Translations under genes and position numbers: made by a program
Shown: in pieces, positions 17,001 through 38,527 of the stretch
How positions within the stretch are numbered: the first letter of the stretch is position 1
Layout of the letters: every line of letters begins with the position of its first letter
DNA from: Gemmatimonadota bacterium
GTDB lineage: Bacteria > Gemmatimonadota > Gemmatimonadetes > Palauibacterales > Palauibacteraceae
NCBI GenBank assembly: GCA_965116475.1
Contig: OZ220691.1
Span: 544,001-608,000 of the forward strand
DNA length: 64,000 nucleotides
Direction of reading: 5' to 3'
Notes under the pieces: model-generated
What the model was told of the DNA's origin: nothing
Seen by the model: only the letters and a program-made list of their open reading frames with translations
The model's database searches: none

Positions 17001-17057
17001 AGCCTGAAACGCCGACCTCGGCGAGGCCGGGTGTCAGGTGAATACCGTATCAGAACA
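17001..17057 (+). mobile_element. IS481-family right-end remnant, copy 1
   Basis: GCCTGAAACGCCGACCTCGGCGAGGCCGGGTGTCAGGTGAATACCGTATCAGAACA, homologous to copies 2-5. Confidence 0.8.
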
Positions 17058-18962: not shown

Positions 18963-19121
18963 CCCCTCCGAACCCTCCTCACTCGGTAGCCAGTCCGATC
19001 TCGCACAGCGAGCGTGCCGGCAGTTCGAGAGGACTCGCTCCGCCCTTCACGCCGCGGGTCGTCGAGCGACCCCAAGCCTCGCCCTTCGCACCCACAGCAT
19101 GGCACCCCTGCGACTCGTCCT

Positions 19122-21212
19122 TCACCTTCCCTCCAGTTCCAGCGCTTGTCGCACCAGTCTCAACGCCGGCCCGACATCTTCTTTACGTCGCAGGTCGACC
19201 AACACACCTCCATCGTACCTCGATCCCACGAGGAATTTCCAACGCCTCGCATCCCGTGCGATCCCGTCATCATCTTCGATCTCGTTGACCTCTGGCGCCA
19301 TTAGCAGCAACAGCCTCCCCACTCGCGGCAGCACCTCCACAAAGAACTCTTGAGCATGATAGCTGATCGACTGACCCTCCGCGATTTCCACGATCACCGA
19401 ATCCAACTGTTTGATCTCCTCTCTCACCACACCAAGCAGTTCTCGAGCGTGGCTATTCATCTTTACCTTCTCGACGCTCCCTCGCTTCGACCGCCTGACG
19501 AGATCCTCATACTTCGCCTTCTCCAGCAGCTCCGGTGCCACCGCCAGGCGCGGCCAAATCGCCAAGGTGCGGCGACACAACGTCACACCCCGCTCTCGCA
19601 TTTGAGCCGCAGTCCACACGTTCTGCTCCCTCACAAACCGATTCAAACGGACCGCACTCTCTGCGAAGCCACCCTTGATTGTCTTTTTCTCCTCGAAGGA
19701 TCGATCCGACATCTCACTGTTATACCCAGTCAATGTCAGGTTCCCGAGCCGGTGCAGCCATTCCTCCTGTATCACCTTCCAATCTGATCCGAGCATCGCT
19801 TGCCAAGCAGTGGGGAGTCGCGCGTTCTGTGGCATAATATGTTCAATCGAATACTCACTCGTATCGGTTACTTCCTTGACATTATGATTCTCCAACCGCT
19901 CCAAGAGGACGCGACAGACTCTCTTCCCGTAGATGTTCTGTTCAAGCAGCTGCGTTTCGAACTCCTGATTTTGCGGAAATCTGTAGTTCTTTGACTGGCG
20001 TGCCAATCCGACCTTGAGGCTGTCCAATGGCCCCGTGTCCTGAATCTGGTGCGCCAATCTAGCGAAGGTACTCCAATAACCTCGGGTCTGGAGTCCGCAG
20101 ATTGCACGGCGAAACACATAGCTTTCCAGCAGATCCAAAGCTTCGATGAACTCCTCAGTTCGCAGTGTCTTGAGTCTCTCGTGACAATCGTAGAGGCGCA
20201 TTACCAGGATCGCAGGAACGTCAACCAACCTCCGGAGCCGACGCAGGGCTGGGCGGAGGTTTTTGTCGATAACGCCTCTACTGAGACTGAAAGCCGCGTA
20301 ATACCGGGCATATCGAAGCATCTCCACCAGCGCCTCCTCCAAGTCGCCAGCTTCTGCGCATAGCGTATCGAAGGCGCGGCGGAACGCATGATAGATCTCG
20401 TCGGCTCGACCCTGTTTCGCCGCCTCAGTCTTAAGGGCCACGTAGTCTCGGAAGAAGCTATTCGATCGGTCGCCATGCCCCTGAAATAGCAATTCGATCT
20501 TGTGCCAGTACTGTTCATACAGTTTCGTTTGCTCTCGCTCCGGGAGCCCCATGAGAACGAAGTTTCGTATTAGATCAGAGGGGCTGAGGTCGACGCCCGT
20601 TGAATTCAAGCTCTCGAATATCGCTTGCGGGTCATCATGCGAGTGCAATCGCACATCCACCACGTCAAGACGCTTGATGCCCCTATAGATTCTCTGTGGA
20701 TCCACTTCCGCCATGCGGCCCTGAAAGTAGCTGTAGTTTTCTCGAATGCGTGCGGACTCGGTTGAGGGGGGTTCGGTCTCATCAAGGATGGCGGTCAAGG
20801 TCTCGTGGTCGTGGCGCCGGAGGACGAGTTTTGGGCGGTCGGGATCCGGCAGTGTGGGGTTACGCAGGAACTGCCTGTCCAGATTATCTCCCGTCAGGTA
20901 AGCGTCCTCATACTCGGACCGCGTTACGAGGTCCCGGAGGGCAGCCGCCATAAGGACCACGGTGGTGAAGCGCTGCTGGCCGTCGATGAGCAGCCATCGT
21001 TGAAGGGACGCCTCGGCGTCGTGCGAAGGAGCGTATACGATCGAGCCAAGAAAATGCCGTGCGTCGGAGGGAGCGTCAGCAACGGCCAAGACATCCTGCC
21101 AGAGTTGTTCGCATTGCTCCGCAGTCCAGCTGTAGTCGCGCTGGAAGACGGGGATGAGGTATTGCCGCTGGCCGTCGATTAGCCTGATCAGAGGGTTATC
21201 AGTGGCTTGCAT
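19122..21212 (-). CDS. GmrSD-like type IV restriction protein (DUF262 + DUF1524 + probable DUF5655 tail)
   Basis: IPVFQRDYSW, HFLGSIV, LIDGQQRFTT, IFESLNSTG, SIEHIMPQ, HRLGNLTLTGYN. Confidence 0.9.
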   Translation of the reverse strand: MQATDNPLIRLIDGQRQYLIPVFQRDYSWTAEQCEQLWQDVLAVADAPSDARHFLGSIVYAPSHDAEASLQRWLLIDGQQRFTTVVLMAAALRDLVTRSEYEDAYLTGDNLDRQFLRNPTLPDPDRPKLVLRRHDHETLTAILDETEPPSTESARIRENYSYFQGRMAEVDPQRIYRGIKRLDVVDVRLHSHDDPQAIFESLNSTGVDLSPSDLIRNFVLMGLPEREQTKLYEQYWHKIELLFQGHGDRSNSFFRDYVALKTEAAKQGRADEIYHAFRRAFDTLCAEAGDLEEALVEMLRYARYYAAFSLSRGVIDKNLRPALRRLRRLVDVPAILVMRLYDCHERLKTLRTEEFIEALDLLESYVFRRAICGLQTRGYWSTFARLAHQIQDTGPLDSLKVGLARQSKNYRFPQNQEFETQLLEQNIYGKRVCRVLLERLENHNVKEVTDTSEYSIEHIMPQNARLPTAWQAMLGSDWKVIQEEWLHRLGNLTLTGYNSEMSDRSFEEKKTIKGGFAESAVRLNRFVREQNVWTAAQMRERGVTLCRRTLAIWPRLAVAPELLEKAKYEDLVRRSKRGSVEKVKMNSHARELLGVVREEIKQLDSVIVEIAEGQSISYHAQEFFVEVLPRVGRLLLLMAPEVNEIEDDDGIARDARRWKFLVGSRYDGGVLVDLRRKEDVGPALRLVRQALELEGR

Positions 21213-21267
21213 GAGGGCTCCGGTCGTTGCAGTGCATTAGCGGGCCGAAGGAAAGGCCGTTGCCATG

Positions 21268-24200
21268 CTAGGTTGGGGTTCGCCGGTATGCGAGGGCAAA
21301 CACAGTATCGCCGAGCCAGCGCTTGAAGTCGGTGTTGTCTACGAACTGCTTGAACAGCTCGGTGTCGTCCTTCATGATGCTCGTCATCACGCGGGCGAGA
21401 GCGCGGTCGTGCTCGATTCGGGCGTTCTCGCGGTCCGAGTTCTCCCGGGCGTTCTTGAAGGCCGGGTCCTGCGCCACCTTGGCCGGGATCGTCTCGGTGA
21501 TCATCTCTTGGACGCGGTCATCGTGCTCCCACTCGATCGCGCCGAACAGGTCGTTGAACTCGTCGATGATCCGGGACAGGCGGTCGATCTCGGGGTCGGG
21601 GCGCCCTCCCCCGTTGACGCCGGGCACCGGCTCGATTTCGGCGTCCTCGTCGGGGAGGATGATCTTCTGCATCGCTTTCTTCTCGACGCGGTAGCTGTCC
21701 ATGTCGATCGTTTCGAGGATGCCCTTCGAGAGGTCCTCCTCCGCGGGCGCCGGCAGCTTCGGGATCAGGAAGTTCAGGAAGATCGAGCGCTCTTCCCAGC
21801 CGGGGTTGCTGTAGGGGAGGATCGAAGACAGGAAGCCGTAGGTCCGCACGAAGCCGCGGGCCTTGCTCTTGAACGCGACCTGTTCGTCTTCGTCCAGGTC
21901 CTCGATGTACACGGCGACGCACTGGTCCAGGATGGGATCGAGTTGGTCGCGGTCCGCTCCGTCCAGATAGCCCTTCACGAACGCCGTGACCTGCTCCAGC
22001 CGGTACACGTGGGCGGCGTCCAGATCCGCCTGGAGGTCGTGGAGCTTGTTGGGGTCCGTCTCGTCGGCCAGGACCGTCGCGCGGTAGTAGTCGGCGAAGG
22101 CCTCGGTGATCGTGTCCGTGTCGTTCAGGAAGTCCAGCACGAACACGTCGTGCTTCTTGGGGTGCGACCGGTTGAGTCGCGACAGGGTCTGGACCGCCTT
22201 GATCCCGGAGAGCGTCTTGTCGACGTACATGGTGTGGAGCAGCGGCTCGTCGTAGCCGGTCTGGAACTTGTCCGCGCAGATGAGGAAGCGGTACGGGTCC
22301 TCCTGGAAGGTCTCGGCGATCTTGCTCGGCGGGAAGCCGTTCAGCGTGGCCTCGCTCACCTTTTTCCCGCCGTACTCGTGTTCGCCCGAGAAGGCGACGA
22401 TCGCCCCGTAGCGGCTCTTCCGCTCCTCCAGGTAGTCGCGGATGGCGTGGAAATACTGGATCGCGCGCTCGATCCCGTTGGTCACGACCATCGCGCGCGC
22501 CTTGCCGTCGATCTTGTGCTGGGCCAGCACCTGTTCGTGGAAGTGGTCGACCATGATCTCGGCCTTGAGGCGGATCGCATGGTCGTGTCCCTCGACGTAG
22601 CGGCGGAGCTTCTTGCGGGCCTTCCGGACGTCGAACTCCGGGTCGTCCTCCACCGTCTTGGCGAGCTTGTAGTAGCTCTTGACCGGCGTGTAGTGCCGGA
22701 GCACGTCCAGGATGAAGCCCTCCTCGATCGCCTGCTTCATGCTGTAGGTGTGGAAGGCGCGGTGCCGGACGGTCCCGTCGCTCTGCGGATCCGGCTCGCC
22801 GAAGATCTCGAGCGTCTTGTTCTTCGGCGTGGCGGTGAAGGCGAAGTAGCTGGCGTTGGGGAGCAGCTTCCGCGACTCGATCAGACGGTTGATCTGGTCC
22901 TCGTACGTCTCCTCCTCCTCCGCTTCGCCCGCCTCGCCCAGCGCGCTCGCCATGGCTGCGCTGGTCTTCCCTCCCTGACTCGAGTGCGCCTCGTCGATGA
23001 TGATCGCGAAGGTGCGCCCGCGCTGCTCGTTGCCGATCTCGTCGAGAATGAAGGGGAACTTCTGGATCGTCGAGATGATGATCTTCTTCCCCTGCTCGAT
23101 GAACGTGCGCAGATCGCCCGACTTCTCGGCGTGCCCCACCGTCGAGCTCACCTGCGCGTACTTCCTGATCGTGTCGCGGATCTGCCGGTCGAGGATGCGG
23201 CGGTCGGTGACGACGATGATCGAGTCGAACACGGGCGCGCCGTCCTTCTCCAGCCGGATCATCTGGTGCGCCAGCCAGGCGATCGAGAAGCTCTTGCCGC
23301 TGCCGGCGGAGTGCTGGATCAGGTAGCGGCTTCCCGCCCCGTGCTCGCCGGCGTGGGCCAGCAGTTGGCGCACGACGTCGAGCTGGTGGTAGCGCGGCCA
23401 GATCTGGACTCGCTTCTTCCTCCCCGTCTTTCGGTCCTTTGACGCCACGACCTGCGCATAGTTTTCAAGCATGTTGGTCAGGCTCTCCCGGGCCAGCACC
23501 CGACGCCACAGGTAGTCCGTGGCGAGCCCGTGGGGGTTGGGAGGATTCCCCGCCCCGTCGTTCCAGCCGCGGTTGAACGACAGGAACCAGGAGGCCTTCC
23601 CCTTCAGGTGCGTGCAGAAGTGGATCTCGTTCTCGTCGACCGCGAAGTGCGCCAAGCAGCGCCCCAACCGGAACAGCGGCTCGCGCTGACTACGGTCCCG
23701 CCGGTACTGCCGCATCGCGTCGCTGACCGTTTGTTTCGTCAGGCGGTTCTTGAGTTCGAACGTGAAGACCGGGAGGCCGTTGATGAAGAGTCCGATGTCG
23801 AGAGACCGCTGGGTCTCGTCGCGGCTGTACCGAAGCTGGCGCGTGACCGTGAAGCGGTTCTGCTCGAAGCGCTGCCTGGCCTTGACGTTTTCGGCCGAGG
23901 GCGTGCCGTAGAAGAGGTCGAGGTCGTGCGGGCCGTGCTTGATGCCGTTGCGGAGGACATCGATGGTGCCGCGCTTGTTGATCTCGCCTTGGAGCCGGGC
24001 AAGGAACTTGCGGCGGGTGGGGCCGTCTTCCGTGAGACGGAGGGCGGCGGCGGCTTCAGGTTGCGTGATGTAGAGGAAAGTGCGGAGTTGAACGAGGTCG
24101 ACGCAGTACTCGCGGTTGTAGTCGTGATGGTTACCTTGAGACCAACCTACGCCGCCATGGCGTGCGGGCGGTTCTCGTACGGTCGGTCCTGACGGAGGAT

Positions 24201-24270
24201 CGCAGGGGTCTCCAGTCAGAGCCTTGCAAATCAACCGCTCGAAGCTCCGTTCATTCATATCGGTTGTCAT
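21268..24270 (-). CDS. hsdR: Type I restriction enzyme subunit R
   Basis: DIGLFINGLPVFTFELKN nuclease motif; QHSAGSGKS; IIDEAHSSQ; FTATPK; KFQTGYDEP; QTLSRLNR. Confidence 0.96.
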   Translation of the reverse strand: MTTDMNERSFERLICKALTGDPCDPPSGPTVREPPARHGGVGWSQGNHHDYNREYCVDLVQLRTFLYITQPEAAAALRLTEDGPTRRKFLARLQGEINKRGTIDVLRNGIKHGPHDLDLFYGTPSAENVKARQRFEQNRFTVTRQLRYSRDETQRSLDIGLFINGLPVFTFELKNRLTKQTVSDAMRQYRRDRSQREPLFRLGRCLAHFAVDENEIHFCTHLKGKASWFLSFNRGWNDGAGNPPNPHGLATDYLWRRVLARESLTNMLENYAQVVASKDRKTGRKKRVQIWPRYHQLDVVRQLLAHAGEHGAGSRYLIQHSAGSGKSFSIAWLAHQMIRLEKDGAPVFDSIIVVTDRRILDRQIRDTIRKYAQVSSTVGHAEKSGDLRTFIEQGKKIIISTIQKFPFILDEIGNEQRGRTFAIIIDEAHSSQGGKTSAAMASALGEAGEAEEEETYEDQINRLIESRKLLPNASYFAFTATPKNKTLEIFGEPDPQSDGTVRHRAFHTYSMKQAIEEGFILDVLRHYTPVKSYYKLAKTVEDDPEFDVRKARKKLRRYVEGHDHAIRLKAEIMVDHFHEQVLAQHKIDGKARAMVVTNGIERAIQYFHAIRDYLEERKSRYGAIVAFSGEHEYGGKKVSEATLNGFPPSKIAETFQEDPYRFLICADKFQTGYDEPLLHTMYVDKTLSGIKAVQTLSRLNRSHPKKHDVFVLDFLNDTDTITEAFADYYRATVLADETDPNKLHDLQADLDAAHVYRLEQVTAFVKGYLDGADRDQLDPILDQCVAVYIEDLDEDEQVAFKSKARGFVRTYGFLSSILPYSNPGWEERSIFLNFLIPKLPAPAEEDLSKGILETIDMDSYRVEKKAMQKIILPDEDAEIEPVPGVNGGGRPDPEIDRLSRIIDEFNDLFGAIEWEHDDRVQEMITETIPAKVAQDPAFKNARENSDRENARIEHDRALARVMTSIMKDDTELFKQFVDNTDFKRWLGDTVFALAYRRTPT

Positions 24271-25707
24271 GAGTGGGTATGGTTGAGAGCCGGAGCGGGA
24301 TCCGACTCTTCCCAGTCCTCGGCAAGAGTCGCCTTGGCATCTCGGTGGAGATCGCCTTCGAGGCTGTGGCGTCGGGGCAGCGAAGCCGCGGCCTCTCGCA
24401 CGTCGAGCTTGCCGGTGACGACATCGGCGATCAGGCGGCTGCGGTATTCTCGCAGCAACTCAACCTGTCGTTCCGCGCGGGACAAAGCCACATCCAAGTC
24501 CTGCTTCCTTCGGTGTATCTCTGTAACGAGCCTCTGCTGTTCGGCGAAAGGGGGCTTGAGCACCCGTAGCGCTCCGATGTCTTCCATGTTAAAGTGACCC
24601 ACAGTAGTTCCTTGTGTCGCTAACCGGACATGGTCTCTGGGTGGTCCCGCGTAGATCATGTAAACGAGTAGATTTGGATCATATTCGCCTCGCCTCGACC
24701 GCATTAGTACCGTGCGCTGCCCTAGGCAAACGTTTGCATCCTTGGGCACAACACATGCTTCGCCAACAGGAGCTTCTCGCGTGAAGATCACGTCACCAGG
24801 CTCCGGCTTGGTTCGCCTTGTCCACGCCTGAAACGCCTCCTTGCTGGTGCAGTAGGTGCCTTCCCATCGGAGGCTCCCTCCCCGAACAGCCGTCGTTCGC
24901 ACGACTCGATACTCGCTATCGTCAACCTCAGGCGCTGTCCTGTGCTCGCAGTCCACCAACCGGTCAAGAACCCACTTCAGGGCAACCACATCCCAATGCT
25001 CAGGTACTTTCCCCATCCACTCCACACCGGAGTCCTTGTAAGCCGGGTACGGCTGGCCGGTTCGGGCATCGATCTGGCCTGTGACGGCTTGATGGATGAT
25101 GGCCCGCTTCTGTTCCTCCAGGAGTTCGATCAACCGTTCCTTTGCGCTGACGTAGCGTCGGATGCGCCAGTCAACGTGGTCGAGGAAGCGGACGATCGCT
25201 GCTTGCTCCGAACTCGGCGGTACGGGAACCAGTTGGTCCCCGAAGGCCGCAAAGCGGAAGTCGGTCGATCGCTCCCGAACACCCCGAGAGAGAGCCGAGA
25301 TCCATTGGCTCCGAGCCATCTCGCGGATGCATGACGCGTAGTAGTGCGAGTTCGTAGCGCCGTGTCTCGGCGCACAAACCGAATACACCGGTGTGCACTT
25401 ACCATCCGAGTCGGAGACGCCGCAGGCACCGGCAAAAGCGTCCATCGTGTGGATCACGAGATCACCACGGCGAACTCCCTGATAACCAATCTCCTTCAGT
25501 GACTCCGTGAAGCCTGAAGTTCGGCGGTTCTTTCGAAGCGTCACTGTGCCATCGCGAAAACACGTGACTACGTCGTCACTCGAGGTGACCGGTCGATCCA
25601 GCTTTGCAAACAACGACTTCGACCGCATCACTGACCAATGCTCTGGCACCGTGCCAAGCCATTCCACACCGGAATCCCGGAGGGAATCGTAGGGTCTCGC
25701 TCCGCTA

Positions 25708-25715
<8 letters not shown>
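24267..25715 (-). CDS. hsdS: Type I restriction-modification specificity subunit S
   Basis: Two DSGVEW.G.VPEHW repeats, two PP..EQ motifs, LI..(A/V)VTG conserved regions. Confidence 0.95.
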
Positions 25716-27849
<2,134 letters not shown>

Positions 27850-28078
27850 GTTTCCCCTGGTGGCTCCTTGGAATCGTCAAGTATGCTTGAGCGTTGCAGA
27901 TCTCACCACGACCACTCAAGGATCCGTTGGCAGATGCAGGTACGGCAGGGAATGCACCTACGGCAAGTGCCCCCCAAAAAACGGGGGGGCTGACAAGCGC
28001 CTCGTACGCGAACCAGCCCGCAGGCGAGGTTCCCATTCTCTTCTGCAAGGCAGCACAGCCCGCCAGTCCCAAACCCAT

Positions 28079-28121
28079 CTGAAGCGCTGACCTCGGCGTC
28101 AACCAATGCCGTACTTGTACA
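28079..28121 (+). mobile_element. IS481-family right-end remnant, copy 2 (internally shortened)
   Basis: CTGAAGCGCTGACCTCGGCG...CCGTACTTGTACA. Confidence 0.7.
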
Positions 28122-28206
28122 CCTAGCTAGGAGCCGCTGTTGACAACCTGCGTGGAATCCGCTTTCATGTGTGCTTCCGACGACCACCGATTCCATTCTC
28201 GACGCC

Positions 28207-29019
28207 ATGAACACCTTTAAGCCCAAGAGTCTAGCTGAATTCGTCGACAACGTGAACGAGCTCGATCAGTCGATTGACGGCCCTCTTTGGTATAGAGGTG
28301 CGTCGAAGTTATCGTACCGCCTCCTACCGAGCCTGTATCGTCCCCGTCCCACGAGCACTCCTCCGCTTAGCCTTTCCGAGCTCGAACAGCGACTCGTCGA
28401 CCGCTTTCGCGAGCGTAGCATCCCCTATCACGCACACCCTCTAGATCCTGACGATCTCGAGATCCTGTTTCTAATGCAGCACTTCGGCGTCCCGACTCGT
28501 TTGCTGGATTGGACCGAAAATCCATTCTTTGCACTCTTCTTCGCGCTTCGGCACGTGTCCTTCCGCCGGGGCACGCACGGCGACATGTTCTGCACGCACG
28601 ACGCCACCGTCTGGGTGCTTGACGCTGCCGCCTGGAACCGCGCAGCCCTGAAACACCTTAGCTATGATGTCGGACCACTTGACCCTAGTCACGAGAGTGT
28701 AATCCCTTACCGTTCCATCGGGAGCATCCACGAGCTCCCGTCACCTCCCGTAGCCTTATACGGTGCCCACACAAGTTCTCGGATCGTTGCCCAACAGGGA
28801 ACCTTTGTGCTATTTGGGAAAGAAACGCGGCCCATGGAAACGATAGCAGCCCGCTCCATGTTCCCAACGGAATGTCTAGTCCGCCTCGTTCTCACTCGCG
28901 GCGTGATTCGAGAACTCCGTCGTGCCCTCTTCCGTCACGGCATCACCGAAGCCGCGCTGTTTCCTGACTTGGAAGGTCTGGCGCGTGACCTCAAACACAC
29001 TTTTGGGTTTTCGCTATGA
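28207..29019 (+). CDS. FRG domain protein
   Basis: WYRG....YRLLPSLYR, MQHFGVPTRLLDWTENPFFALFFA, RIVAQQGTF, GIT.AALFPDLEGL; alternative start at 28171. Confidence 0.92.
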   Translation: MNTFKPKSLAEFVDNVNELDQSIDGPLWYRGASKLSYRLLPSLYRPRPTSTPPLSLSELEQRLVDRFRERSIPYHAHPLDPDDLEILFLMQHFGVPTRLLDWTENPFFALFFALRHVSFRRGTHGDMFCTHDATVWVLDAAAWNRAALKHLSYDVGPLDPSHESVIPYRSIGSIHELPSPPVALYGAHTSSRIVAQQGTFVLFGKETRPMETIAARSMFPTECLVRLVLTRGVIRELRRALFRHGITEAALFPDLEGLARDLKHTFGFSL

Positions 29020-30083
29020 TTTCACCGCCTCGATTTAAGATTCGGCAACATGATGCAAGGACTCTCTCTTGGTGGCGGCATCGCCGCGATCAGATTGATA
29101 TGAACCCACCATATCAACGGCGCGGTCGGTTATGGTCTTCGGCCGATAAGGCGTATCTTGTGGACTCGATTCTAAACGAATTCGATATTCCAAAGTTCTA
29201 TGTCGCCGATTTCACGTGGGGCAACTCACAGTTGAACGAAGCTCAGCTTCCTTATGCCATCATCGATGGCAAACAACGATTCGAAGCCATCTTTGATTTC
29301 TACGATGGCAAGATTCAACTGCAAGATGATTTTGAGTATCGATCGAACCCTAAACACAAGCTGGGCGGGCTGAGCTATCGCGACCTGCGCGACAACTACG
29401 CGGATGTAGCGGAAGTATTCGACAATTTCGTCCCACATGTCATGGGAGTGTACGCTGAGGAGGAAGGCAAAATCAACGATTTGTTTGTCCGCCTGAATCG
29501 TAGTAAGCCGCTGACCGGCGCCGAGATCCGAAACGCCATGGGAGGACCAGTACCAGCGATCCTACGTGAATTGGCGAACCATGAGTTTTTTGCAGAGATT
29601 ATACGATTTAACGTGAAGCGCGGCCAAGACCTAAACGCCGTAGCTAAGATATTGTTGTTTGAATTCTATCATGAACTGCGAGATACAAAGAAACGCAACT
29701 TGGACGAGTTCGTGGAGAGCGTCGGGGCGGATAAACAAGAGCGATTGGAATTGGCGGGACGGAAGATCGTCGATGTTCTCGATGATATGCGTGATGTGTT
29801 TTTGCCGCGAGATCGGTTGTTGTCGTCATCGGGTATCGTGCCGGTGTACTATTGGTTTATGCGCGAACGAACACGTAATGAACTGCCCCGAGTTCGACGA
29901 TTTATTGTTGGCTTTGAAGAAAAGCGGAAAGAGCACCGCCGAAGACTTCGCGACCAGCCCGGGATGGAGGAGGTGGATCACGAACTGACGGAGTACGATA
30001 ACTACAACCGAAGCACGAATGACGTGTCAAGCCACCGCGGGCGAGTTAGGATCCTCACGCGGCGTTTCAAGAAGTCACCCTAA
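29016..30083 (+). CDS. DUF262 (GmrS/ParB-like) domain protein
   Basis: PPYQRR..LWS, LVDSIL..FDIP, IIDGKQR, LFVRLN.SKPLT.AEIRNA; ATGA overlap with the FRG gene. Confidence 0.88.
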   Translation: MISPPRFKIRQHDARTLSWWRHRRDQIDMNPPYQRRGRLWSSADKAYLVDSILNEFDIPKFYVADFTWGNSQLNEAQLPYAIIDGKQRFEAIFDFYDGKIQLQDDFEYRSNPKHKLGGLSYRDLRDNYADVAEVFDNFVPHVMGVYAEEEGKINDLFVRLNRSKPLTGAEIRNAMGGPVPAILRELANHEFFAEIIRFNVKRGQDLNAVAKILLFEFYHELRDTKKRNLDEFVESVGADKQERLELAGRKIVDVLDDMRDVFLPRDRLLSSSGIVPVYYWFMRERTRNELPRVRRFIVGFEEKRKEHRRRLRDQPGMEEVDHELTEYDNYNRSTNDVSSHRGRVRILTRRFKKSP

Positions 30084-30467
30084 TACGTTGCTGTCGCTAT
30101 GCGCGAGGTTCCCGAGCCACACGTGGCCTTGTGCGCTTCGGGGCATTGATGGGCTCGCCGCGCTTCGGTGAGCGAGATTACGCTGAAGGAGGCATGGTTG
30201 ATGGATGATGAACGGAGTGATGCGCAAGTGCTGGCGTCGGACCACGGTAGGATTCAGGCTCTCTTGACATTGAATGAACTTCTCCTGTACAGAATGCCCA
30301 AGGACGATTTGCGCGCTGTACGACAGCTTGTAGACGGTTTGCGGATGGACTAGCGCATGCTCGCAACGAACTCGGAAGGGGTCCTTGAGGCACCCGAGTT
30401 CCCCCGCCACTATTATGAGGGGTACACGGAGCAGTTTGACCGCTTTATTGACCGAGTCAGCCGCTAG

Positions 30468-31385
30468 CATGTTCCTGACCCGGAGTCGGTGCGACAGATT
30501 CACCGTCCTGACTACACCTTGTTGGCGCCGGTGACCTCCATCGGCGTCCGGCCGCGAGTCCAGCGTCCGGTGTGGGCGCGGTCCTCGTTGTAGTAGCGAA
30601 GGTATCTCTCCAGATCGCGGCGGAGACCCAGGAGGCCGGGTACGAGGTACTGGGCGAAGGCGGGCTTCCAGCACTCCTCGAGGATCGTGCCGTGCACCCG
30701 CTCCACACAGCCGTTGGTCTGGGGCCGTCCGCTGCGGATGAACCGGTGTTCCGCGCCGAGGCTCGCCACCGTGTCCCGGAACGCCTGCGCCCGGAACTCG
30801 TTCCCGTTGTCGGTCAGCACCGCGCCCAGCTCCCGGCCGAACCGCTTCAGATCTCCGGCCACCCGCCGCGCCAGACGGGAGGCGTAGCGGGCGGCCGGGT
30901 TGTGCGGTGTCACATGCAACTCGGCCCACGTATACGCGCTCCCCACGTCGATCGCCGTGTACTGCCACACCACCCCCCGGGTGCCCCTGAGCTTGCCGAC
31001 CCGGAAACAGTCCAACTGCACCAGCTCCCCGGGCTCGTCCACCTCCAGACACCACCCGCTGCTCCACCAAGGCCGGCGTGGCGTTCGGCATCCGCAGGTG
31101 CCGTCGCTCCCGTGGCCTCAGCGCCTCCGGCCCGTAACGCTCCAGATCCCGACGCCACCGGTAGAACGTCGCGGGGTGGATCCCCGAGACCTGGCACGCC
31201 TGCCGCACGTTGCCCAACCGCTCGGCCAGCGCCATCGTCCCCAATCGATACCGGTGAAGCATGTCCTCCTAGGTCATGGTGTTGCTCCTGTGGTTCTGAA
31301 ATCCTTGATCAAACTTCAAACCACCGGATGCCATCACCGCACAGGGGGATGCGCCTGTGTCGCTCCATCTCGGAATCAGGACATG
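30468..31385 (-). mobile_element. IS481-family element (second type), internally deleted, with terminal IRs and flanking CTAG repeats
   Basis: Imperfect IRs CATGTTCCTGACCCGGAGTCGGTGCGACA and TGTCGCTCCATCTCGGAATCAGGACATG; CTAG at 30464-30467 and 31386-31389. Confidence 0.85.
30512..31277 (-). pseudogene. IS481-family transposase, disrupted
   Basis: HTH part (GNVRQAC..SGIHPATFYRW) and integrase core (PGELVQLD, VLTDNGNEF, PQTNGCVER, YYN.DR.H) lie in different frames; TAG at codon 3. Confidence 0.88.
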
Positions 31386-31389
31386 CTAG

Positions 31390-31512
31390 GTCTTCGAGAG
31401 AAGGGGACCCGGAAGCCTAGGAGGAGCCGGAAGAAGTCAACCCGGAAGGAAATGAAGACGACAGCCTGGACCGCTGCCCGCGGCGAGGCCGCCGGGTGTC
31501 AGGCGACTACCG
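31390..31512 (+). mobile_element. IS481-family right-end remnant, copy 3, interrupted by the IS1111-type element (tip continues at 32434-32443)
   Basis: Encodes the RKPRRSRKKSTRKEMKTTA tail, then GCCGGGTGTCAGGCGACTACCG; TACTTGTACA resumes at 32434. Confidence 0.8.
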
Positions 31513-31525
31513 TATGTGGACGCCC

Positions 31526-31803
31526 GGAAATGGGCGAGTACGGATTCGGAACCGAGTCGGTGGCAGTCGGGTCAGGTACTGTCGTATGTCCGGCCTCTTG
31601 CTGCAGCCCCTTTTTGGGCCGCGGGCCCGTATGGTGTTCGTGAGATCGGATCCAGATCGTACTTGCGGGCTCTCAGGCCCTCCGGTAATCATTGGTTCTT
31701 CCGACCCCGTCTTGCTGACTGTGTGCCCTTACCCGTTTCTCGCGTCCTGCTGTCCACCCCTCCCTCCAGCGCCTTTGCTTTCGCTGTTTCTCTCGCCGCC
31801 CGC
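31526..31803 (-). ncRNA. Putative bridge/seek RNA region of the IS1111-type element (boundaries approximate)
   Basis: Target-like loop UGAUUACCG-[GGGC hairpin]-CAAGUACGAU (31656-31691); donor-like loop ACACCAUACG...ACAUACGA (31582-31637). Confidence 0.7.
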
Positions 31804-32340
31804 TCAGGCGACAACTCGAACTCGGTAAGCCTCCTTTCGTGTGGCCAGCGCCCAGACCCTCCGCGCCGTCCTGTTGGCGACCGCCACCGCGACCACTTTC
31901 TTCGGCTTCCGCGCCAATACCCCGGCCAGCCACGGATCCGTGATCTCGCCGCGTCGGCTCGCGTGGCTGAACGACCGCCATGGCTTCCCGTGACCAGGAG
32001 CCGTCTCAGGTCTCTTTGGCCCATCTTCGATATCCTGCCAAGCCTCGGCTTGCCGCCGGTGGTGTGCTGCCGCGGCAGGTCACCGCGATGGCGTTGCAGG
32101 CCTTCGCACCGCCCATGAAGAGCTTCCGGCGCTGCCGAGCGCCACGACCTCACGGCCCCATTAGTGGGCGCCGGCGCACGCCTCCATCGCCACCGTACAC
32201 GGCGGCTGTGAGCCGAGCAAGCCCAGCAGCTTCCCCCGGCCCAACTTCCTGCGGAACGCAACCGATCCGTCGGCCCTCGCCCCGTGCACCTGAAAGCTGC
32301 GCTTTGCCAGATCGATCCCGATGATCGTAACCTCTTCCAC
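31804..32340 (-). pseudogene. IS110-family transposase, disrupted
   Basis: IIGIDLAKRSFQVHG, VAMEACAGAH then stop, PRQHTTGGKPRLGRISKMGQRDLRRLLV, KVVAVAVANRTARRVWA; stop codon, frameshifts and missing middle. Confidence 0.9.
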
Positions 32341-32572
32341 GTGGATGCCTCCTCCCTCGGATGGTCGACTGAATCGCTTCAGCACCATCTTGGCACATCG
32401 CGATGCCGTCGGGAGAGGGCGTCCACTCCATCGTACTTGTACACCTTGTCCACTCACGGCACCGTCCGATATCATCTGGATGCCACGCACTGTATCAGTT
32501 TTTTGTAGTCAATCGCGTTCGATGTCGTTACACAACGGGATTCAAACGTTGGGAAAAGGAGCTTTGTGATCC

Positions 32573-33085
32573 ATGACCATCACGCAAGATTCATATATTG
32601 AAGTCCGTAAACGTCTCGTTGAACTCGGATGTGCTTCGCCGCGCAGCGTTGCAATTCTACCGATGAACTTTGACAAGGTCTCGTCCGTTGATGAGTTCCG
32701 TTTCCCGTTTACAATGCTCACAACGACGAAGCTGCTACAAGCTGTCGGTTTATCAATCGACGATATCATGCCGCATGATTCATCACGACGTTATACGAAG
32801 AATCGTGCTGACGATTGGATTCTGCCTACTCTATTCCTTACTTATTACTGGCTAGCTCAGCAACCGGCCGGCCTCGAGATAATCATAACAGCAATATTAG
32901 AATACGCCGAACGGTTCTATGGTGCGATGCCGACACCACGAGTCTCGATGTCAATTGTAAGGGAACATCCAGATGGCGTGTGCGAGAAGATATCGTATGA
33001 TGGACCCGTGAAGGGGCTCCGGGATCTCACGCAAGTGGTCCAATCAACATCCTTCCTAGGACGAGGAGATGATCTCGATGGATAG
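32573..33085 (+). CDS. Hypothetical protein (170 aa), first gene of an AT-rich pair
   Basis: Clean ORF with AAAGGAG upstream; overlaps the next ORF. Confidence 0.7.
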   Translation: MTITQDSYIEVRKRLVELGCASPRSVAILPMNFDKVSSVDEFRFPFTMLTTTKLLQAVGLSIDDIMPHDSSRRYTKNRADDWILPTLFLTYYWLAQQPAGLEIIITAILEYAERFYGAMPTPRVSMSIVREHPDGVCEKISYDGPVKGLRDLTQVVQSTSFLGRGDDLDG

Positions 33086-33716
33086 GAGTTTCATAGAAAA
33101 AATGAACGAATCAGTTCGCGAATTTGAACGATTCTTGTATATAACGCGATGCTCGAATCTTCAACATAACGCGATAAGCGCAATCGCGCAAACAAACGAT
33201 GAGATTGCAAGAGAAAAAGAACATGCAGTAGATCAACACGATGAAGAATATGCCAACATTCTACTTGGATTTCATTGTGTAATGGGCGCACTGGCCGCCG
33301 AATTATCGATGTATTTGGCGCTCAAGGAACAGAAGCCCGATGCAGCTTGGGATCACCTTGTGGAGGCTCAGGGGGCGCTAGCCGCGGCAGGCCGAGCCTC
33401 GTCAGGTTTCCGACACTTGAGAGTTCGCTATGACAGGCTAATTGCGATCGAAAAGATTGTATTCCCACCGCAAGTGTTCTTGAGTGCTGGCATGACTGTA
33501 GTGCAGGCAGAATGTTCAATCTGCAATAATGACTACACTGATTGCAATCACGTTACTGGATTCCCATATATGGGTAAGTTCTGCAATACGGTAATCACAG
33601 AGGTTGACCTTGATCACGTGGCGATCGTTGAAGAACCAGCGGACAAGAGGTGCCGCGTTACGACGCACAGCTCCGACGACGAGGGACGGAACTGGATGAC
33701 GCTTCGAATGGAATAG
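33069..33716 (+). CDS. Hypothetical protein with helical N-terminus and Cys/His-rich C-terminus
   Basis: GAGGAG Shine-Dalgarno; ECSIC......C.H..G..Y.G..C...I...DLDHVAIVEEPA. Confidence 0.75.
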   Translation: MISMDRSFIEKMNESVREFERFLYITRCSNLQHNAISAIAQTNDEIAREKEHAVDQHDEEYANILLGFHCVMGALAAELSMYLALKEQKPDAAWDHLVEAQGALAAAGRASSGFRHLRVRYDRLIAIEKIVFPPQVFLSAGMTVVQAECSICNNDYTDCNHVTGFPYMGKFCNTVITEVDLDHVAIVEEPADKRCRVTTHSSDDEGRNWMTLRME

Positions 33717-33841
33717 ATCGATTGTCACGGCGGCAGAACTGTACGGTTTCCACCCGAGCCTCGGCCGCGCTGACGCAGGGACGGCTGCTGCGGTTTTCGC
33801 GCCGTATTCCGGGACAGAGATGAGGGACGAAGGATCGAATC

Positions 33842-35062
33842 ATGCCGCAACTGGCGTTTTTTCCATGGATCAACCTTGAGCGCGATATCGAGGTCGGCGC
33901 GTACTCGCTGACACCGTCGGTGCGGGGAGCCCGGCCGGGGTCGGATGTCGAGCGGTAATTCACGCTCGATTCCGTCCTTGCTCCATACCGTAACCGTCGG
34001 GACGAGCCGGTCCAGACTGCAGTGATCCTAGCGGCGCGTGACCGACGGCTGACGGACGATCTGTCCGGGAGGGATAGGGCTGATCTGTTTCTGTTTGCCG
34101 AGTTGTTCGCCTTCGCCGCCTTGTCAGCGCGTGAATTCTTTACTTGGGACTACTTCAACCGCGACCAACTACGGCTTGTGATCGAAGCGTTCAAGGAGCC
34201 GGGCGGCGGCGTGGTTGTGGAGACGCGCCGACGCGATGGACGCGTATCGTCGTGGATCGCCGGCGAGGACTATAAGGTCCAGATGCCGGCGCACGTAAGC
34301 TTGGAAGGCCAGGCAATCCAGCCCGACCGCGCCTTGCTCGACGCGCTGCTGGCGTTGCGAGAGCGAGAGCCGGAGGCGTGGACGGGACTGCACCGCGGTA
34401 TTGTCCTCTTCAACCAAGCCAATACCGACGCACTGGATATGTCACTGGAGATCGAACTGGTGCTTACGTACGCGGCGATGGAGCAAGTACTCGGAATCAG
34501 GTCGCGGAGGGACCAAAGGCGGTTCGCTACTAAGTTCGCCGAAGCGTGGTGGCCGAGCCGGGAGGTACCTCGGTGCGAATGGCGACCCCAGCCGAGGGGC
34601 AGGCCCTGGCCGAAAGGCAGCCTCCGGGCCTGCTGGGCTTCGGACCTGCAGGACTGTCGCGGGAACCTCGCGCACGGGCACAGGGAGGACCTAAAGCCGT
34701 CGCGGTGGACGGTTCGGCAACACCTGTTGCTGACCTCCTTCGCCATCCCCCGGCTCGTCAAGCAAATCCTGTCTCAACTGGACCTCTACGACCCGACGGA
34801 CGAGGACCACCGCGACATCAACGCCCTTGAACCTCTCCTAAACCTGCCGGACGTGTTCGCGCCGCCCGATTTCGACGACGACGAGCATGGCTTCTTGGGC
34901 GAAGATTATGCGTGGCTGCGGGTGCTGCGATGCGAGGGGGATCGCCGGGTCCGTCAATGGATCGAGCGGAGGGCGGAAGAGTTGCTTCTTCGACACGAAG
35001 ATGGTGACGATTCCCCGGCTGACGACCCACTGTTGAACGAGTCTGAGATACCCGAGCCGTGA
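33842..35062 (+). pseudogene. HEPN-like (RxxxxH) protein with one in-frame TAA at 33956-33958
   Basis: ATG at 33842 (MPQLAFFPW) is in frame with ORF 34022-35062; motif RGNLAHG follows a helical YAAMEQVL segment. Confidence 0.6.
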
Positions 35063-35232
35063 ACAGCGCGAGGCACGCCCTTCGTCGAGACGGTGCGCGT
35101 GAGCTGGAGCGACGTCAGAGGCGTGTGGACCCCGAGCGGCATCGATACACGTCCTGAGCGGCTCCGAAACCGTTCGGCGCGCGGCCGCATGGAGGTGCGA
35201 AGGCCATATCGGATCATCGACGCACCGATCCC

Positions 35233-35332
35233 GGGAGCCGGAAAAAGTCAACCGGAAAGGAGGTGAAGACCGCAGCCCGAAGCGGCTGACCTCGGCCGAG
35301 GCCGGGTGTCAGGTGAATACCGCACCTGTACA
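35233..35332 (+). mobile_element. IS481-family right-end remnant, copy 4
   Basis: GGAGCCGGAAAAAGTCAACCGGAAAGGAGGTGAAGACCGCAGCC...GCCGGGTGTCAGGTGAATACCGCACCTGTACA. Confidence 0.82.
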
Positions 35333-35465
35333 CTCTACACTCGGGGCCACCCGCAGCAGTGACCTTAGCGAGGGTACATATCATTATCATACCGACACAC
35401 CGAGTCCAATCTCCACCCAAGCATCCTCCAACTCACTGCCTCCATTGTCAGTGTAGTGGCACGAC

Positions 35466-36302
35466 TCATGCACCCTCGCTTCGATCTCTTCCCATCCGAC
35501 TCAGTATACCTCTTACAGTTATATCCATCTGTGAATCTTTCTTATAGTCCGCAGGAGCTACGAAGTCGACCCGTCGGTCGGCAATCAGATGATGGATTTT
35601 GTTGAGATCTTTATCACTACGCTCGGGATCGTATACTGCGATCGCCCAACCACCTTGTTGCGTCGTCATCTTCATCGCCGGAATGTCCGTCTCACCATCG
35701 CCTATAAAAATCATTCGCTTGAACGGAATGGGGCGTTCGCGGTCAGACATATAGCGGTTGATTTCTTTGTTGTCATAATGGTTTTCTATTCCCTTGTTGA
35801 TGCGGAACAGATATTGTGTTTTAGTCGTATAATTGATGGCTACGCCGGGCCATCGCACATGTGCTCCATCGTAGATGAACTTGGAAGCAAATATATATCT
35901 GAATTCATCGTGGATAGGACAACCTCTAATCATCTCATCAATACCTGACGATATGATATAGTGATCGACAAGCAGGCCACAGTTTCTACCATGTTCGTTT
36001 ATTCGCCTAAACCAACTTCCATCAACCAGACCCGGAAAGAGTTCAGCTTTGGCGCCGTGCTGTCGCAACATCTCTTCCGTAACGTCGACCTTTTGTTCTT
36101 TTGCTTTCGCGATCATCTCGCACATATATATGAGAATCTCGTCAACATTTGCTTGCTTTGCGATGGCTTTGACTCCATCCCAGAAAGGACCATTCTCCAT
36201 CTGTAGCACTTCGGGAATAAAGGTCTGTTCTTGTAGATTCCCTCTGGCGAGTGTACCGTCAAAATCATAGATAAGCGCAGCTCGTTGATAGGTTCCAATC
36301 AT
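35466..36302 (-). CDS. HAD-superfamily hydrolase
   Basis: YDFDGTL (motif I), YIISSG (II), TTKTQYLFRINKG (III), FIGDGETD (IV). Confidence 0.9.
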   Translation of the reverse strand: MIGTYQRAALIYDFDGTLARGNLQEQTFIPEVLQMENGPFWDGVKAIAKQANVDEILIYMCEMIAKAKEQKVDVTEEMLRQHGAKAELFPGLVDGSWFRRINEHGRNCGLLVDHYIISSGIDEMIRGCPIHDEFRYIFASKFIYDGAHVRWPGVAINYTTKTQYLFRINKGIENHYDNKEINRYMSDRERPIPFKRMIFIGDGETDIPAMKMTTQQGGWAIAVYDPERSDKDLNKIHHLIADRRVDFVAPADYKKDSQMDITVRGILSRMGRDRSEGA

Positions 36303-36387
36303 TGTGAGTCCCCTTTCTGTGTGTGGCAGTTTTTCTCGAAGAAGACGTACAAGTTCGGCAATCACCTGACGCCCGGTTTAGCCGACG

Positions 36388-36795
36388 TCAGAGTCGCGGA
36401 CTGCTGTCTTCATTTCGCCCTTGGTTGATTTCTCCCCAACCCTTCGGTTCCGGATCCCATCCTTGAGACCCTGATGCCATGTTGGCCGCGCCATGCTGGG
36501 ACCGCAGTGCAGACGGGATCCGTACAGTGGCAGTCCACTTGCGCCGCGTCGGTGGCCGCTTCCGGGGAATCCCGTACATGTCGACGTAGCTGTGTTTGCT
36601 CGGCCGATTCATCGGAACGGATTCATCAAGGGTGTGCAGGATGATGTGGTCGGCGGTCTCCTCGGGCCGACTCCAGAGTTGCGACGAACATCCCAGGTTG
36701 ATGCCCAGATCCTGTAGGATGCGGCTGGGCTGGTCGTCCTCGCCACCCTCCCGGCGCAGCGACGTGTACGGCTCGATGTAGCACAGCTCCTTCAT
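36388..36795 (-). CDS. Hypothetical protein (possibly a fragment)
   Basis: ORF co-oriented with its neighbours; no motif recognised. Confidence 0.3.
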   Translation of the reverse strand: MKELCYIEPYTSLRREGGEDDQPSRILQDLGINLGCSSQLWSRPEETADHIILHTLDESVPMNRPSKHSYVDMYGIPRKRPPTRRKWTATVRIPSALRSQHGAANMASGSQGWDPEPKGWGEINQGRNEDSSPRL

Positions 36796-36946
36796 TGGCC
36801 GATTCGCATCGATTGCCGTGCGGGGGAACAGGCACTGGGGGAAGCGGTTGCGTCCGCGGCAAGCTCCGGTTGCCGTTCCGGTTGAGCGCCGGGCAATCGA
36901 GGTTGGAGTTGGGTTCGAAGGATAGGATCAGCCGCGAGCGGTTCTT

Positions 36947-38527
36947 TCAGTCGCCCGGCCACTTCTGGGACCGACTCGAAACGGCGTCCACGGCTGCCGC
37001 GAGAGCATCGATGCCGCCCGGTGATGTCAGATCCTGAAGGGCCGTCAGCCCAATCGACTTCTGCGCGGGGAGATCGCGCTCGGCAACGACATAGAACTCC
37101 CAGCTCCCGGCGTCCCGTTGGTCGGCCGTGTCCCCGTCGGCTCCGTGCCACGCGAACACGTAGAGGTGCGCGTGGCGTCCGGGCTTCGCGACCCAGTCTC
37201 CTTCCTTGTCCCAATACCCCGTCCGGGGGGCGATATCGTATCGAGCGGGGCTCTGTCGCTCGGGGCTCTTCCAGGCCTGGGCTGCCGCGGACTGCTTGAC
37301 CTCGAGCCTGATTCCCGACTTGTGCTCGAAGTCCCACGAGTCCCATGGCGTCGTGCGCGCCCAGCCGCTGGCCTTGAGCGTGAGCGCCACGATCGCCTCG
37401 ACGTACTCGGAACGGTGGACGTTGTTCATCACCGGCTCCTTGTACGGCCGGATGACGTCCTCAAGCACGATGGCGTCCGACTGCCACGGCTCCGCCAGCT
37501 CGTCCAGGATCCCGACGATGCGCTCGAGCGCGGCCGCATACCGGTCGGGTCCCTTGCCTCCCTCCGGGATGACCGGAACCCACAACTGCTCGCCGACCTC
37601 GTGGAGTCTCGACCCCATGCGAGCCTCGAGTATTGCCTTGACACCGGGGTTCCAGCCCTGGCCGTCGGCGAAGACCCAATCCACACACACCATCCAGAGT
37701 GGCGTCGAGGCGAACTCCTGATACAGACGTGAGTTGATCCCCAACCAAACACCGAGCTTGTAGCGGCGATCGATGCGCGCGTATCGGCCGTAGCCGTAGC
37801 CACGCGGCGCTACCTGGTAGCTGCCACGACCCGACATGGTCCTGGTCGCCAGCCAGCCGGCCGCCTTCCCGATCTCGGTAACCGTATCGACCATCTCCTT
37901 TCCCGGGAGCGTAGCCTTGCTCTCCTTTGCCTCGGCGAACCGCACGAGTCCTCGGAGTTGCCGGAGGTCCGCCCGACCGAACTCGTCACCCTCCAGCGGT
38001 TCCTTCATGCTGTCCAACAAGGTGGTCCAGTCGATGATGCAGAGGTGCTTCTCCGTCCCATCGATCCGGACGCAGCGCGGATGCTCGAGACCGGTATACG
38101 GGAGTCCCTTCCTTTCGAGCCGGCCGAGCAGCCGCGGCCAGAGCTCCTCCACTCGCCGGGTTGGAACCAGGAACATGAGCACCGAGACACCGGCCGACGG
38201 CAACTGCTCCAGGTAGGAAACGGGCTGAGCCCGCATGAGCGGCGCATCGAACTTGGCCTCGATGAGGAACCGCTGCTCCCCGTTGTCTCCCTTCTGCAGC
38301 ACGTCCGGGCGCCCCAACTCCGGATCGGGAGTCTCCGTCTCGAAGTCCATGCCGGACAACCGCATGCCCGGGACGATTCGCGCCAGCAGCTCGTTCAACC
38401 CCTCTCGCGAGCCGGGATGGCTGTTGAGGATGTACTCGAGCACGGAGCAGGCGAGCACCTCCATCGGTGGATGAAACCGCCAGCTCAGGTGAGTCAGCAG
38501 CGGCTTTGACGTCTCAGTATCACTCAC
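36947..38527 (-). CDS. Protein with two PD-(D/E)XK-like nuclease domains
   Basis: N-terminal GRPDV...FLIEAKF..PL..AQP.SY; C-terminal WDF...SGIRLEVKQSAAAQAW...LYVFAWH. Confidence 0.7.
   Translation of the reverse strand: MSDTETSKPLLTHLSWRFHPPMEVLACSVLEYILNSHPGSREGLNELLARIVPGMRLSGMDFETETPDPELGRPDVLQKGDNGEQRFLIEAKFDAPLMRAQPVSYLEQLPSAGVSVLMFLVPTRRVEELWPRLLGRLERKGLPYTGLEHPRCVRIDGTEKHLCIIDWTTLLDSMKEPLEGDEFGRADLRQLRGLVRFAEAKESKATLPGKEMVDTVTEIGKAAGWLATRTMSGRGSYQVAPRGYGYGRYARIDRRYKLGVWLGINSRLYQEFASTPLWMVCVDWVFADGQGWNPGVKAILEARMGSRLHEVGEQLWVPVIPEGGKGPDRYAAALERIVGILDELAEPWQSDAIVLEDVIRPYKEPVMNNVHRSEYVEAIVALTLKASGWARTTPWDSWDFEHKSGIRLEVKQSAAAQAWKSPERQSPARYDIAPRTGYWDKEGDWVAKPGRHAHLYVFAWHGADGDTADQRDAGSWEFYVVAERDLPAQKSIGLTALQDLTSPGGIDALAAAVDAVSSRSQKWPGD

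Follow-up and report, generated by a model that had tools for sequence, protein, structure and literature searches.

How does one insertion sequence (IS) come to lie within what is likely the terminal repeat of another? The question is raised by a 64,000-nucleotide (nt) stretch of the genome of a Gemmatimonadota bacterium (GenBank assembly GCA_965116475.1, contig OZ220691.1, forward-strand positions 544,001 to 608,000), here called the window, in which positions 31513 to 32433 hold a decayed element of the IS1111 type. We conclude with high confidence that this region is the fossil of an RNA-guided insertion sequence whose guide was matched to an IS481-family terminal repeat. The original prediction, made from the letters of the window, had proposed an RNA-guided element aimed at an IS481-family end with a CG core, a proposal that is upheld by a consensus fold of relatives, by covariation of their guides with their flanks, and by occupancy of the repeat in other genomes. 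The genome is a single contig of 3.62 Mb (69% G+C, 96% complete), and the comparison set consists of 61 related genomes including this one, 36 of them genomes of the genus.

The element and the repeat it occupies

Removing 31513 to 32433 joins GGGTGTCAGGCGACTACCG (31494 to 31512) to TACTTGTACA (32434 to 32443), and the joined 29-mer matches 35304 to 35332 at 25 of 29 positions and also resembles the ends at 36346 to 36374 (minus strand) and 28101 to 28125. The targeted 29-bp terminal repeat reads …GGTGATTACCG|TACTTGTACA; its inner 19 nt (31494 to 31512) belong to the likely right-end remnant of the targeted IS481-family element (31390 to 31512, plus strand), and its outer 10 nt (32434 to 32443, plus strand) were detached by the insertion. 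The 19-nt inner motif has four matches in the window against 0.07 expected, and the ~125-nt end segment adjoining the element recurs many times in the genus, with similarity between copies extending ~150 to 170 nt inward from the tip. Across the 36 genus genomes, the unoccupied repeat (at most two mismatches) is present at 53 sites in 17 genomes, a repeat running directly into the right end of the element was found at 8 sites in 6 genomes, and the left junction pattern at 4 sites in 2 genomes; occupancy in the opposite orientation was found at no site in any of the 36, and reversed-pattern controls gave 0 in each of these searches. GTCAGGTGATTACCGTACTTGTAC occurs exactly, unoccupied, in relatives. 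Every copy found with the local guide sits in the same repeat and in one orientation, and the flanks of relatives, which the original prediction had proposed to inspect, are indeed repeat ends at the 8 occupied sites.

The element itself is 921 bp long (31513 to 32433, minus strand) and can be aligned to an intact copy in genome G017, and all of the boundaries and coordinates first given for it agree with the sequence. Read on the minus strand from 32433 to 31513, it starts with CGATGGA-GTGGACGCCC and ends with GGGCGTCCAC-ATA, between …TGTACAAGTA on the left and CGGTAGTCGCCTGACACCC… on the right. The left 7-nt extension CGATGGA (32427 to 32433) precedes the left subterminal inverted repeat GTGGACGCCC (32417 to 32426), and the right subterminal inverted repeat GGGCGTCCAC (31516 to 31525), placed by sequence and relatives, is followed by a 3-nt extension, AUA in RNA letters (31513 to 31515). 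The ends of relatives read CGATGGA + GTGGACGCCCCC … GGGGGCGTCCAC + ATA, which makes a 12-bp repeat; the local copy has 10 matching bases left, and its extensions are unchanged.

Compared with 1,408-bp relatives, ~487 bp are missing from the local element. Its positions 1 to 300 and 357 to 921 align to the intact G017 copy and keep reference positions 1 to 300 and 845 to 1408, while reference positions 301 to 758 and 819 to 844 are absent; between these deletions lies a 60-bp inverted segment (32078 to 32137) that matches reference positions 759 to 818 in reverse, and contigs of other sequencing runs join at 32078 to 32137 on opposite strands. The transposase survives as two remnants on the minus strand. 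The N-terminal one (32134 to 32340; DEDD/RuvC part, NF033542 model positions 1 to 71, 51 bits) has a GTG start at 32340 and translates as VEEVTIIGIDLAK…VAMEACAGAH before an in-frame TAA stop codon at 32161 to 32163. The C-terminal one (31804 to 32078), split over two frames, matches PF02371 (E = 2e-4) and NF033542 positions 260 to 302 and 308 to 342, ending in …RKEAYRVRVVA and a TGA stop at 31804 to 31806. With a stop codon and a frameshift, the gene is detected by Pfam and NCBIfam as weak fragments only (51, 23, and 20 bits on NF033542). Downstream of the transposase stop lies a non-coding region of 291 nt (31513 to 31803), and ~93 nt precede the start. A promoter and terminator scan of 31450 to 32500 gave one weak promoter-like site, on the plus strand and outside the element, and one terminator-like site at 31478 to 31460.

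Full-length copies of 1,406 to 1,414 bp with an open 340-aa gene are present in G017. The gene of this intact relative (L003:1796-2815) reaches 318 bits with the model NF033542, "IS110 family RNA-guided transposase", whose cut-off is 140, and both PF01548 (5.9e-14) and PF02371 (2.4e-24) are recognized in it; its C-terminal motif is GLVPRQHSTG, of which the local remnant retains only …RQHTTGG…. The available text on the IS1111 group gives a C-terminal motif GL-P----S/TG and subterminal inverted repeats of ~11 to 13 bp with a left extension of 7 bp and a right one of 3 bp (PMC11187229). Here we find a DEDD recombinase with PF02371 (in the intact relative), the motif, subterminal repeats with their extensions, a downstream non-coding region, and site- and orientation-specific insertion, all of which support placing the local element in the IS1111 type of the IS110 family.

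DNA matches to the element are found in 14 of the 61 related genomes, namely the window's own and 13 of the 35 other genomes of the genus, and in neither the single genome of the family's second genus nor any of the 24 genomes of the sister family. Over 98% of its length, the intact relative's transposase shares 41.6% identity with family transposases annotated as IS4321/IS5075; its identity to IS110-family genes on alphaproteobacterial plasmids is 60 to 67%. Further relatives, of which 505 are reported, have record titles from Gemmatimonadota (Longimicrobiales, "Candidatus Palauibacter"), and a few come from metagenome-assembled genomes of Alphaproteobacteria and Binatia. Sequencing runs with related sequence are labeled mostly as sponge metagenome, and the contigs of four of them were compared with the locus. 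The exact locus is present in two DNA sequencing runs, which may be its source. At G017:C4:615000-625000 (L003/L041) insertions are nested: one IS1111-type copy lies in an IS481-type repeat, which itself lies 154 nt inside a further IS1111-type copy flanked by …TGTACAAAGTA|CG.

Guide RNA, target covariation, and state of the local copy

If the element was led to this repeat by an RNA, the guide should be legible in the non-coding region. A seek/bridge RNA scaffold is located there at 31571 to 31732 (minus strand), on the basis of a consensus fold built from an alignment of the last ~190 nt of the region in 27 copies. The fold contains 35 base pairs in eight helices, with 98.4% of cells being standard pairs and seven pairs changed on both sides; none of 500 column shuffles reached the observed pairing or covariation score, and sliding the partners by one to three columns lowered pairing to 26 to 42%. 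An outer stem carries two internal loops. The first is closed by GGGGUCGGA/UCCGAUCUC together with CCA/UGG and has a GGGC/GCCC hairpin as its cap; on the second, the cap consists of two helices, GGCC/GGCC and GCGGC/GCCGC. None of the 35 consensus pairs is missing from the local sequence.

The four guide segments picked out by the original prediction are all there, and the consensus fold places them in loops, not in stems. The first loop has UGAUUACCG and CAAGUACG as its unpaired sides, and the second has ACACCAUACG and ACAUACGA. The 5' arm of the target loop, UGAUUACCG (31683 to 31691, minus strand; plus strand CGGTAATCA), is complementary to the top strand of the CG and right flank in the element's orientation. 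The 3' arm, CAAGUACGAU (31656 to 31665, minus strand), is identical to 6 nt of left flank, the CG, and the first two bases beyond it; the shorter segment first marked here, 31658 to 31665, reads CGTACTTG on the plus strand and CAAGUACG on the minus strand. In the donor loop, the 5' arm ACACCAUACG (31628 to 31637, minus strand; plus strand CGTATGGTGT) is an imperfect complement of the left end, and the 3' arm ACAUACGA (31582 to 31589, minus strand; plus strand TCGTATGT) is identical to the right end, the CG, and the A of the predicted circle junction. The window contains just two exact copies of the 10-mer CAAGTACGAT, at the left junction (32430 to 32439) and in the non-coding region (31656 to 31665), against 0.07 expected and with no two-site case among 100 shuffles. 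The original prediction had counted an 8/9 match of the 5' arm to two other copies of the repeat and 7/9 to the occupied site; the repeat consensus from 18 fetched loci, GGGTGTCAGGTGATTACCG-TACTTGTACA, matches both local guide arms perfectly.

Do guides and targets change together? Covariation was examined in 36 copies with 33 guide pairs, comprising the local copy and 35 of 80 fetched loci. Both ends could be called in 73 of the 80, and each apparent target class among these contributed one to three copies; L058, L060, L062, L096, and L100 were left out for mis-called ends. Across the RNA alignment, column entropy is 1.7 and 1.8 bits in the two target arms, ~0.3 bits in the donor arms, and 0.41 bits in the rest of the RNA. 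In 29 of 36 copies, at least 7 of the 9 positions of the 5' arm agree with that copy's own CG and right flank, compared with 35 of 1,056 non-cognate pairings. For the 3' arm, agreement with its own left flank and CG reaches at least 7 of 8 positions in 29 of the copies (non-cognate, 26 of 1,056) and at least 6 of 8 in all 36 (non-cognate, 63 of 1,056). The covariation of guide and target that had been called for as a check is thereby borne out.

The donor loop could be followed as well. Five variants of the element's right end and core are seen, and each is matched by its own version of the 3' arm: ACAUACGA with CACATA-CG, AUAGACGA with CATAGA-CG, AUAGAUGA with CATAGA-TG, ACAGAUGA with CACAGA-TG, and ACACACGA with CACACA-CG. 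The predicted donor loop is upheld in its 3' segment, which is identical to the right end and core; its 5' segment is an imperfect match to the left end. In more distant relatives this 5' arm contains CUCCAU, the exact complement of ATGGAG; the local group has CACCAU. Discontiguous pairing of a donor arm is reported for IS621 in the available text of PMC11208160.

These observations suggest how active relatives would move. The element would excise as a circle joining …CCACAUA-CG-AUGGAG…, and an RNA of ~160 nt from the region downstream of the transposase gene would bind the DEDD recombinase, its donor loop reading the element's own joined ends and its target loop reading a 15- to 17-bp site through two arms. 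The 5' arm UGAUUACCG would form pairs with the CG and right flank on their top strand, and the last bases of the 3' arm, which match the element's own left end, may act like the handshake bases of IS621. At the target …GGTGATTACCG|TACTTGTACA, crossover would occur at the CG, 10 bp from the tip of the IS481-family element, and insertion would therefore split the end of the other element and presumably disable it. From published work on other family members we infer that such an RNA is transcribed, is bound by the recombinase, and guides the recombination. The local copy inserted in this way. Its transposase gene afterwards decayed: ~487 bp were lost, 60 bp are inverted, and the gene has acquired a stop codon and a frameshift.

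Several points weigh against this reading. The single-sequence minimum-energy fold of the local RNA is undistinctive (z = -1.33; 15 of 200 shuffles are as good) and pairs parts of both target arms together, a pairing that is unconserved in relatives; the proposed check by folding thus succeeds with the 27-copy consensus, where the arms lie in loops, but fails with the local sequence taken singly. The companion check against RNA covariance models matched no Rfam family: a scan of 27000 to 37000 at E values up to 10 gave noise only and no seek or bridge RNA, for example sR20 (17.7 bits against a cut-off of 44). Metatranscriptome contigs covering the non-coding region come from a relative, not from the local copy; the contig concerned is 357 nt long with 13 differences, from one sponge metatranscriptome, and RNA-library contigs of this kind show neither strand nor ends and may derive from DNA in the library. 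By Watson-Crick rules, the 5' arm fits the occupied site, CGGTAGTCG, at seven of its nine positions, as originally counted; the other two place U opposite G, so that all nine can pair if wobble is allowed. Seven of the 36 copies match their right flank at 6 or fewer of 9 positions (3/9 in L088, a rearranged copy, and 5 to 6 of 9 in several others). The 36 copies were also hand-chosen and are related, so that the counts overstate independence. The donor 5' arm fits the left end only if one mismatch and one extra base are allowed, and its covariation is weak, one of three left-end variants (L089) being tracked cleanly. On the side of the target, the IS481 fragments fall below the NF033577 cut-off (94, 62, and 41 bits against 224), and no intact targeted element with both ends and a whole gene is among the loci recovered.

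Could the local copy still act? A dead recombinase beside an intact guide was part of the original prediction, and both halves hold, since the gene is reduced to fragments and the scaffold forms all of its consensus pairs. One might then suppose that the local RNA is still produced and serves, in trans, a recombinase encoded elsewhere, and that it could so drive recombination among the IS481-type ends of the island. The complete scaffold with both target arms would suit such a role, as would the partly matching repeats nearby at 17029, 28101, 35304, and 36346. Against it, a search of the whole genome with NF033542 returned three fragments, all inside the local element and the best of them at 51 bits against the cut-off of 140, in an assembly that is one contig and 96% complete; no second copy of the element was found in the genome by DNA search; decay has left the right subterminal repeat with 10 matching bases out of 12; and the non-coding region shows no sign of retention, since its identity to the G017 copy (92%) does not exceed that of the dead gene (93%). 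We therefore consider that the local copy can no longer move and that action in trans is very improbable. The earlier suggestion that other IS481 ends in the island are potential landing sites is moot here, as no IS110-family recombinase exists outside the element in this search.

A still more doubtful possibility is that the guide matches are chance or a by-product, that the recombinase protein itself recognizes the repeat, and that the non-coding region has some other function, for instance as a promoter or in stabilizing a transcript. The weak local fold and the lack of an Rfam match fit this explanation, and so does the 9-mer TGATTACCG, which taken alone is the weaker evidence: it is not rare in the window, having a second exact copy at 33589 to 33597 and 15 sites within one mismatch where 7.2 would be expected. 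Yet the two target-loop arms are the only hypervariable blocks in an otherwise conserved RNA, and they track the flanks over 33 guide pairs. L004, L032, and L007 are, over their full length, 83 to 86% identical in DNA to the G017 reference but have different targets, with the changes concentrated in the arms, and experiments on other IS1111 members required the RNA, according to the available text of PMC11187229. That the 3' arm match merely reflects mis-set element ends or a captured target duplication is scarcely credible: the same 10-mer does stand at the junction and inside the element, and database ends in this family are described as often mis-set (PMC11187229, available text), but unoccupied repeat copies fix both ends exactly, the internal copy has a fixed place in a conserved structure and varies by target class while neighboring bases stay constant, and the second arm is complementary to the other flank, not identical to it, as a duplication would not yield.

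The owner of the repeat and variation at the crossover

Which element owns the occupied repeat? An obvious candidate is the adjoining IS481-family transposase remnant at 30533 to 31247 (minus strand, two frames), but intact relatives reject it. Compared with intact 354-aa genes in G020 and G004, this remnant has an internal deletion of ~210 nt, and the alignment starts and stops at CTAGCATGTCCTGATTC… (31389) and …GAACATGCTAG (30464); being so bounded, it is a separate element. This second, different IS481-family element (30464 to 31389, minus strand), its transposase deleted and frameshifted, has CTAGCATGT… repeats at 30464 and 31389 with CTAG at both tips, and it sits ~130 bp inside the end, in the subterminal region, of the targeted element. 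The occupied repeat is likely the ~130-bp right-end remnant of another IS481-family element. Frameshifted fragments just inside the repeat (L147, L149) have NF033577 as their best match, and the gene in those loci reads toward the repeat, which therefore is the right end; an IS481-type remnant also adjoins the occupied repeat in G017, and L142 is a ~960-bp remnant with both repeats. The original statement that the element sits in an IS481 terminal repeat is thus kept as to the likely family and corrected as to the owner, the repeat not being an end of the element that carries the 30533 to 31247 transposase. A tblastn search for IS481-type genes in the flanks of the 80 loci was positive at the G017 locus only. 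In L151 (G011:C1:2657500-2663500, ~2276 to 2937), two facing repeats lie ~660 bp apart with no transposase match between them, which looks like a small non-autonomous derivative.

The core dinucleotide is CG at this locus and CT in IS621. L004 (genome G011), L071 to L073, and L099 have CG at the left junction but CA at the right; L082 and L063 are likewise CG on the left and CA on the right, and L095 has TG on the right. The CG/CA combination is shared by several copies whose flanks differ, and in all of the copies named it is the right-junction bases to which the 5' guide arm corresponds. In the G011/L072 class, CA is called for by the 5' arm and CG by the 3' arm, and the element's own junction and donor guide are CG; seven of nine pattern hits to its unoccupied target read …AAGC-CA-GC…, the other two being chance-like in a search where reversed controls also hit. 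With a CA target and a CG donor, the cores thus differ at one base. It is conceivable, although we think it unlikely, that IS1111-type recombinases here tolerate a one-base core mismatch or exchange with one shared base, in which case the 3' arm would read the post-exchange junction. The CG/CA pattern could instead arise from directional repair.

Variation at the crossover is also seen in the repeat of the local class. Of the 53 unoccupied repeats, 12 have CA or TG in place of the CG, and G024 accounts for six of the 12; among the 8 occupied junctions, 3 have such a change. Escape from targeting was considered and set aside. As the changes occur in occupied junctions too, they look mutational, and CpG decay appears to be the better description.

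Other sites in the window and the genus resemble parts of the target. The repeat at 17029 to 17057 has the inner 19 nt, followed by TATCAGAACA instead of TACTTGTACA; at 33579 to 33600 (minus strand), the second exact TGATTACCG (33589) is followed by TATTGCAGAAC. These two could be diverged ends, remnants, or chance. An old insertion that cut the 17029 repeat at its CG is not supported as an explanation: the outer TATCAGAACA may simply be divergence, and a similar string follows the TGATTACCG at 33589. In G020, L143 and L144 are two repeats followed by only 11 to 12 nt of an IS1111-type right end (TATGTGGACGC), and they are remnants of old insertions later truncated. L079 and L080 (OZ246950.1), which carry another guide class, lie in …GGTGTACCGGTTC-CG-GTTTTCTGGACA… with TGTAC at the outer side; this site may be the end of another insertion sequence, and no IS481-type gene was found within 1.5 kb of it.

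The mobile-element nest lies in an apparent defense island (18096 to 30083), whose genes encode a DUF3800 protein (18096 to 18962), GmrSD (19122 to 21212), a type I HsdM methylase (25708 to 27849), an FRG-domain protein (28171 to 29019), and a GmrSD N-domain protein (29016 to 30083).

Relation to known systems and significance

IS4321 and IS5075 reportedly insert into the terminal repeats of the Tn21 family. The element described here shares with them a DEDD recombinase, subterminal repeats, a downstream non-coding region, and a single orientation of insertion within a terminal repeat that belongs to another transposable element. It differs in its target, which is an IS481-family repeat of ~29 bp and not a Tn3/Tn21-family transposon, and in its host, sponge-associated Gemmatimonadota in place of enterobacterial plasmids; the local copy is also dead.

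As to the RNA, seekRNAs are described for the IS1111-family elements ISEc11, ISPa11, ISKpn4, and ISPst6 (Siddiquee et al. 2024, PMC11187229). In the available text of that study, as here, the RNA comes from DNA downstream of the transposase, the arm that complements the top strand precedes, on the 5' side, the one that complements the bottom strand, and close relatives have been reprogrammed naturally. The targets it names are a short linear site, REP sequences, and attC sites, in contrast to the IS481-family repeat, and a second conserved loop reading the element's own ends is made evident here by covariation, in a clade known from sequence alone. The bridge RNA of IS621, as far as its available descriptions go (Durrant et al. 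2024, PMC11208160; PMC13626964), is alike in having two internal loops, of which the variable one reads the target and the conserved one the donor, in reading both DNA strands around a shared core with each loop, in the discontiguous pairing of its donor arm (PMC11208160), and in extra bases beyond the core that can pair after strand exchange, the handshake guides. It is unlike the present RNA in being encoded upstream, in the left end, and in its reversed arm order. The RNA-guided mechanism and the targeting of other transposons' repeats by IS1111 elements are thus already known, and the element here extends them. In the literature, supplementary target tables aside, we found no description of an IS481-family target or of this clade.

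For genome annotation, the region is a dead mobile-element nest with no current activity. What it preserves is a natural example of one insertion sequence homing by programmable RNA on the terminal repeat of another, where insertion 10 bp from the tip must disrupt the targeted end, and it extends the habit of IS4321/IS5075 in Tn21 to an IS481-family target and to sponge-associated Gemmatimonadota. If the relaxed core is true, it would mean a looser design constraint for bridge-type recombinases. The relatives are the more useful product: 36 close copies with 33 guide pairs and a near-constant scaffold, each with its flanks and with transposases 74 to 100% identical to the query among the matches listed, form a ready-made natural reprogramming series for an IS1111-type recombinase.

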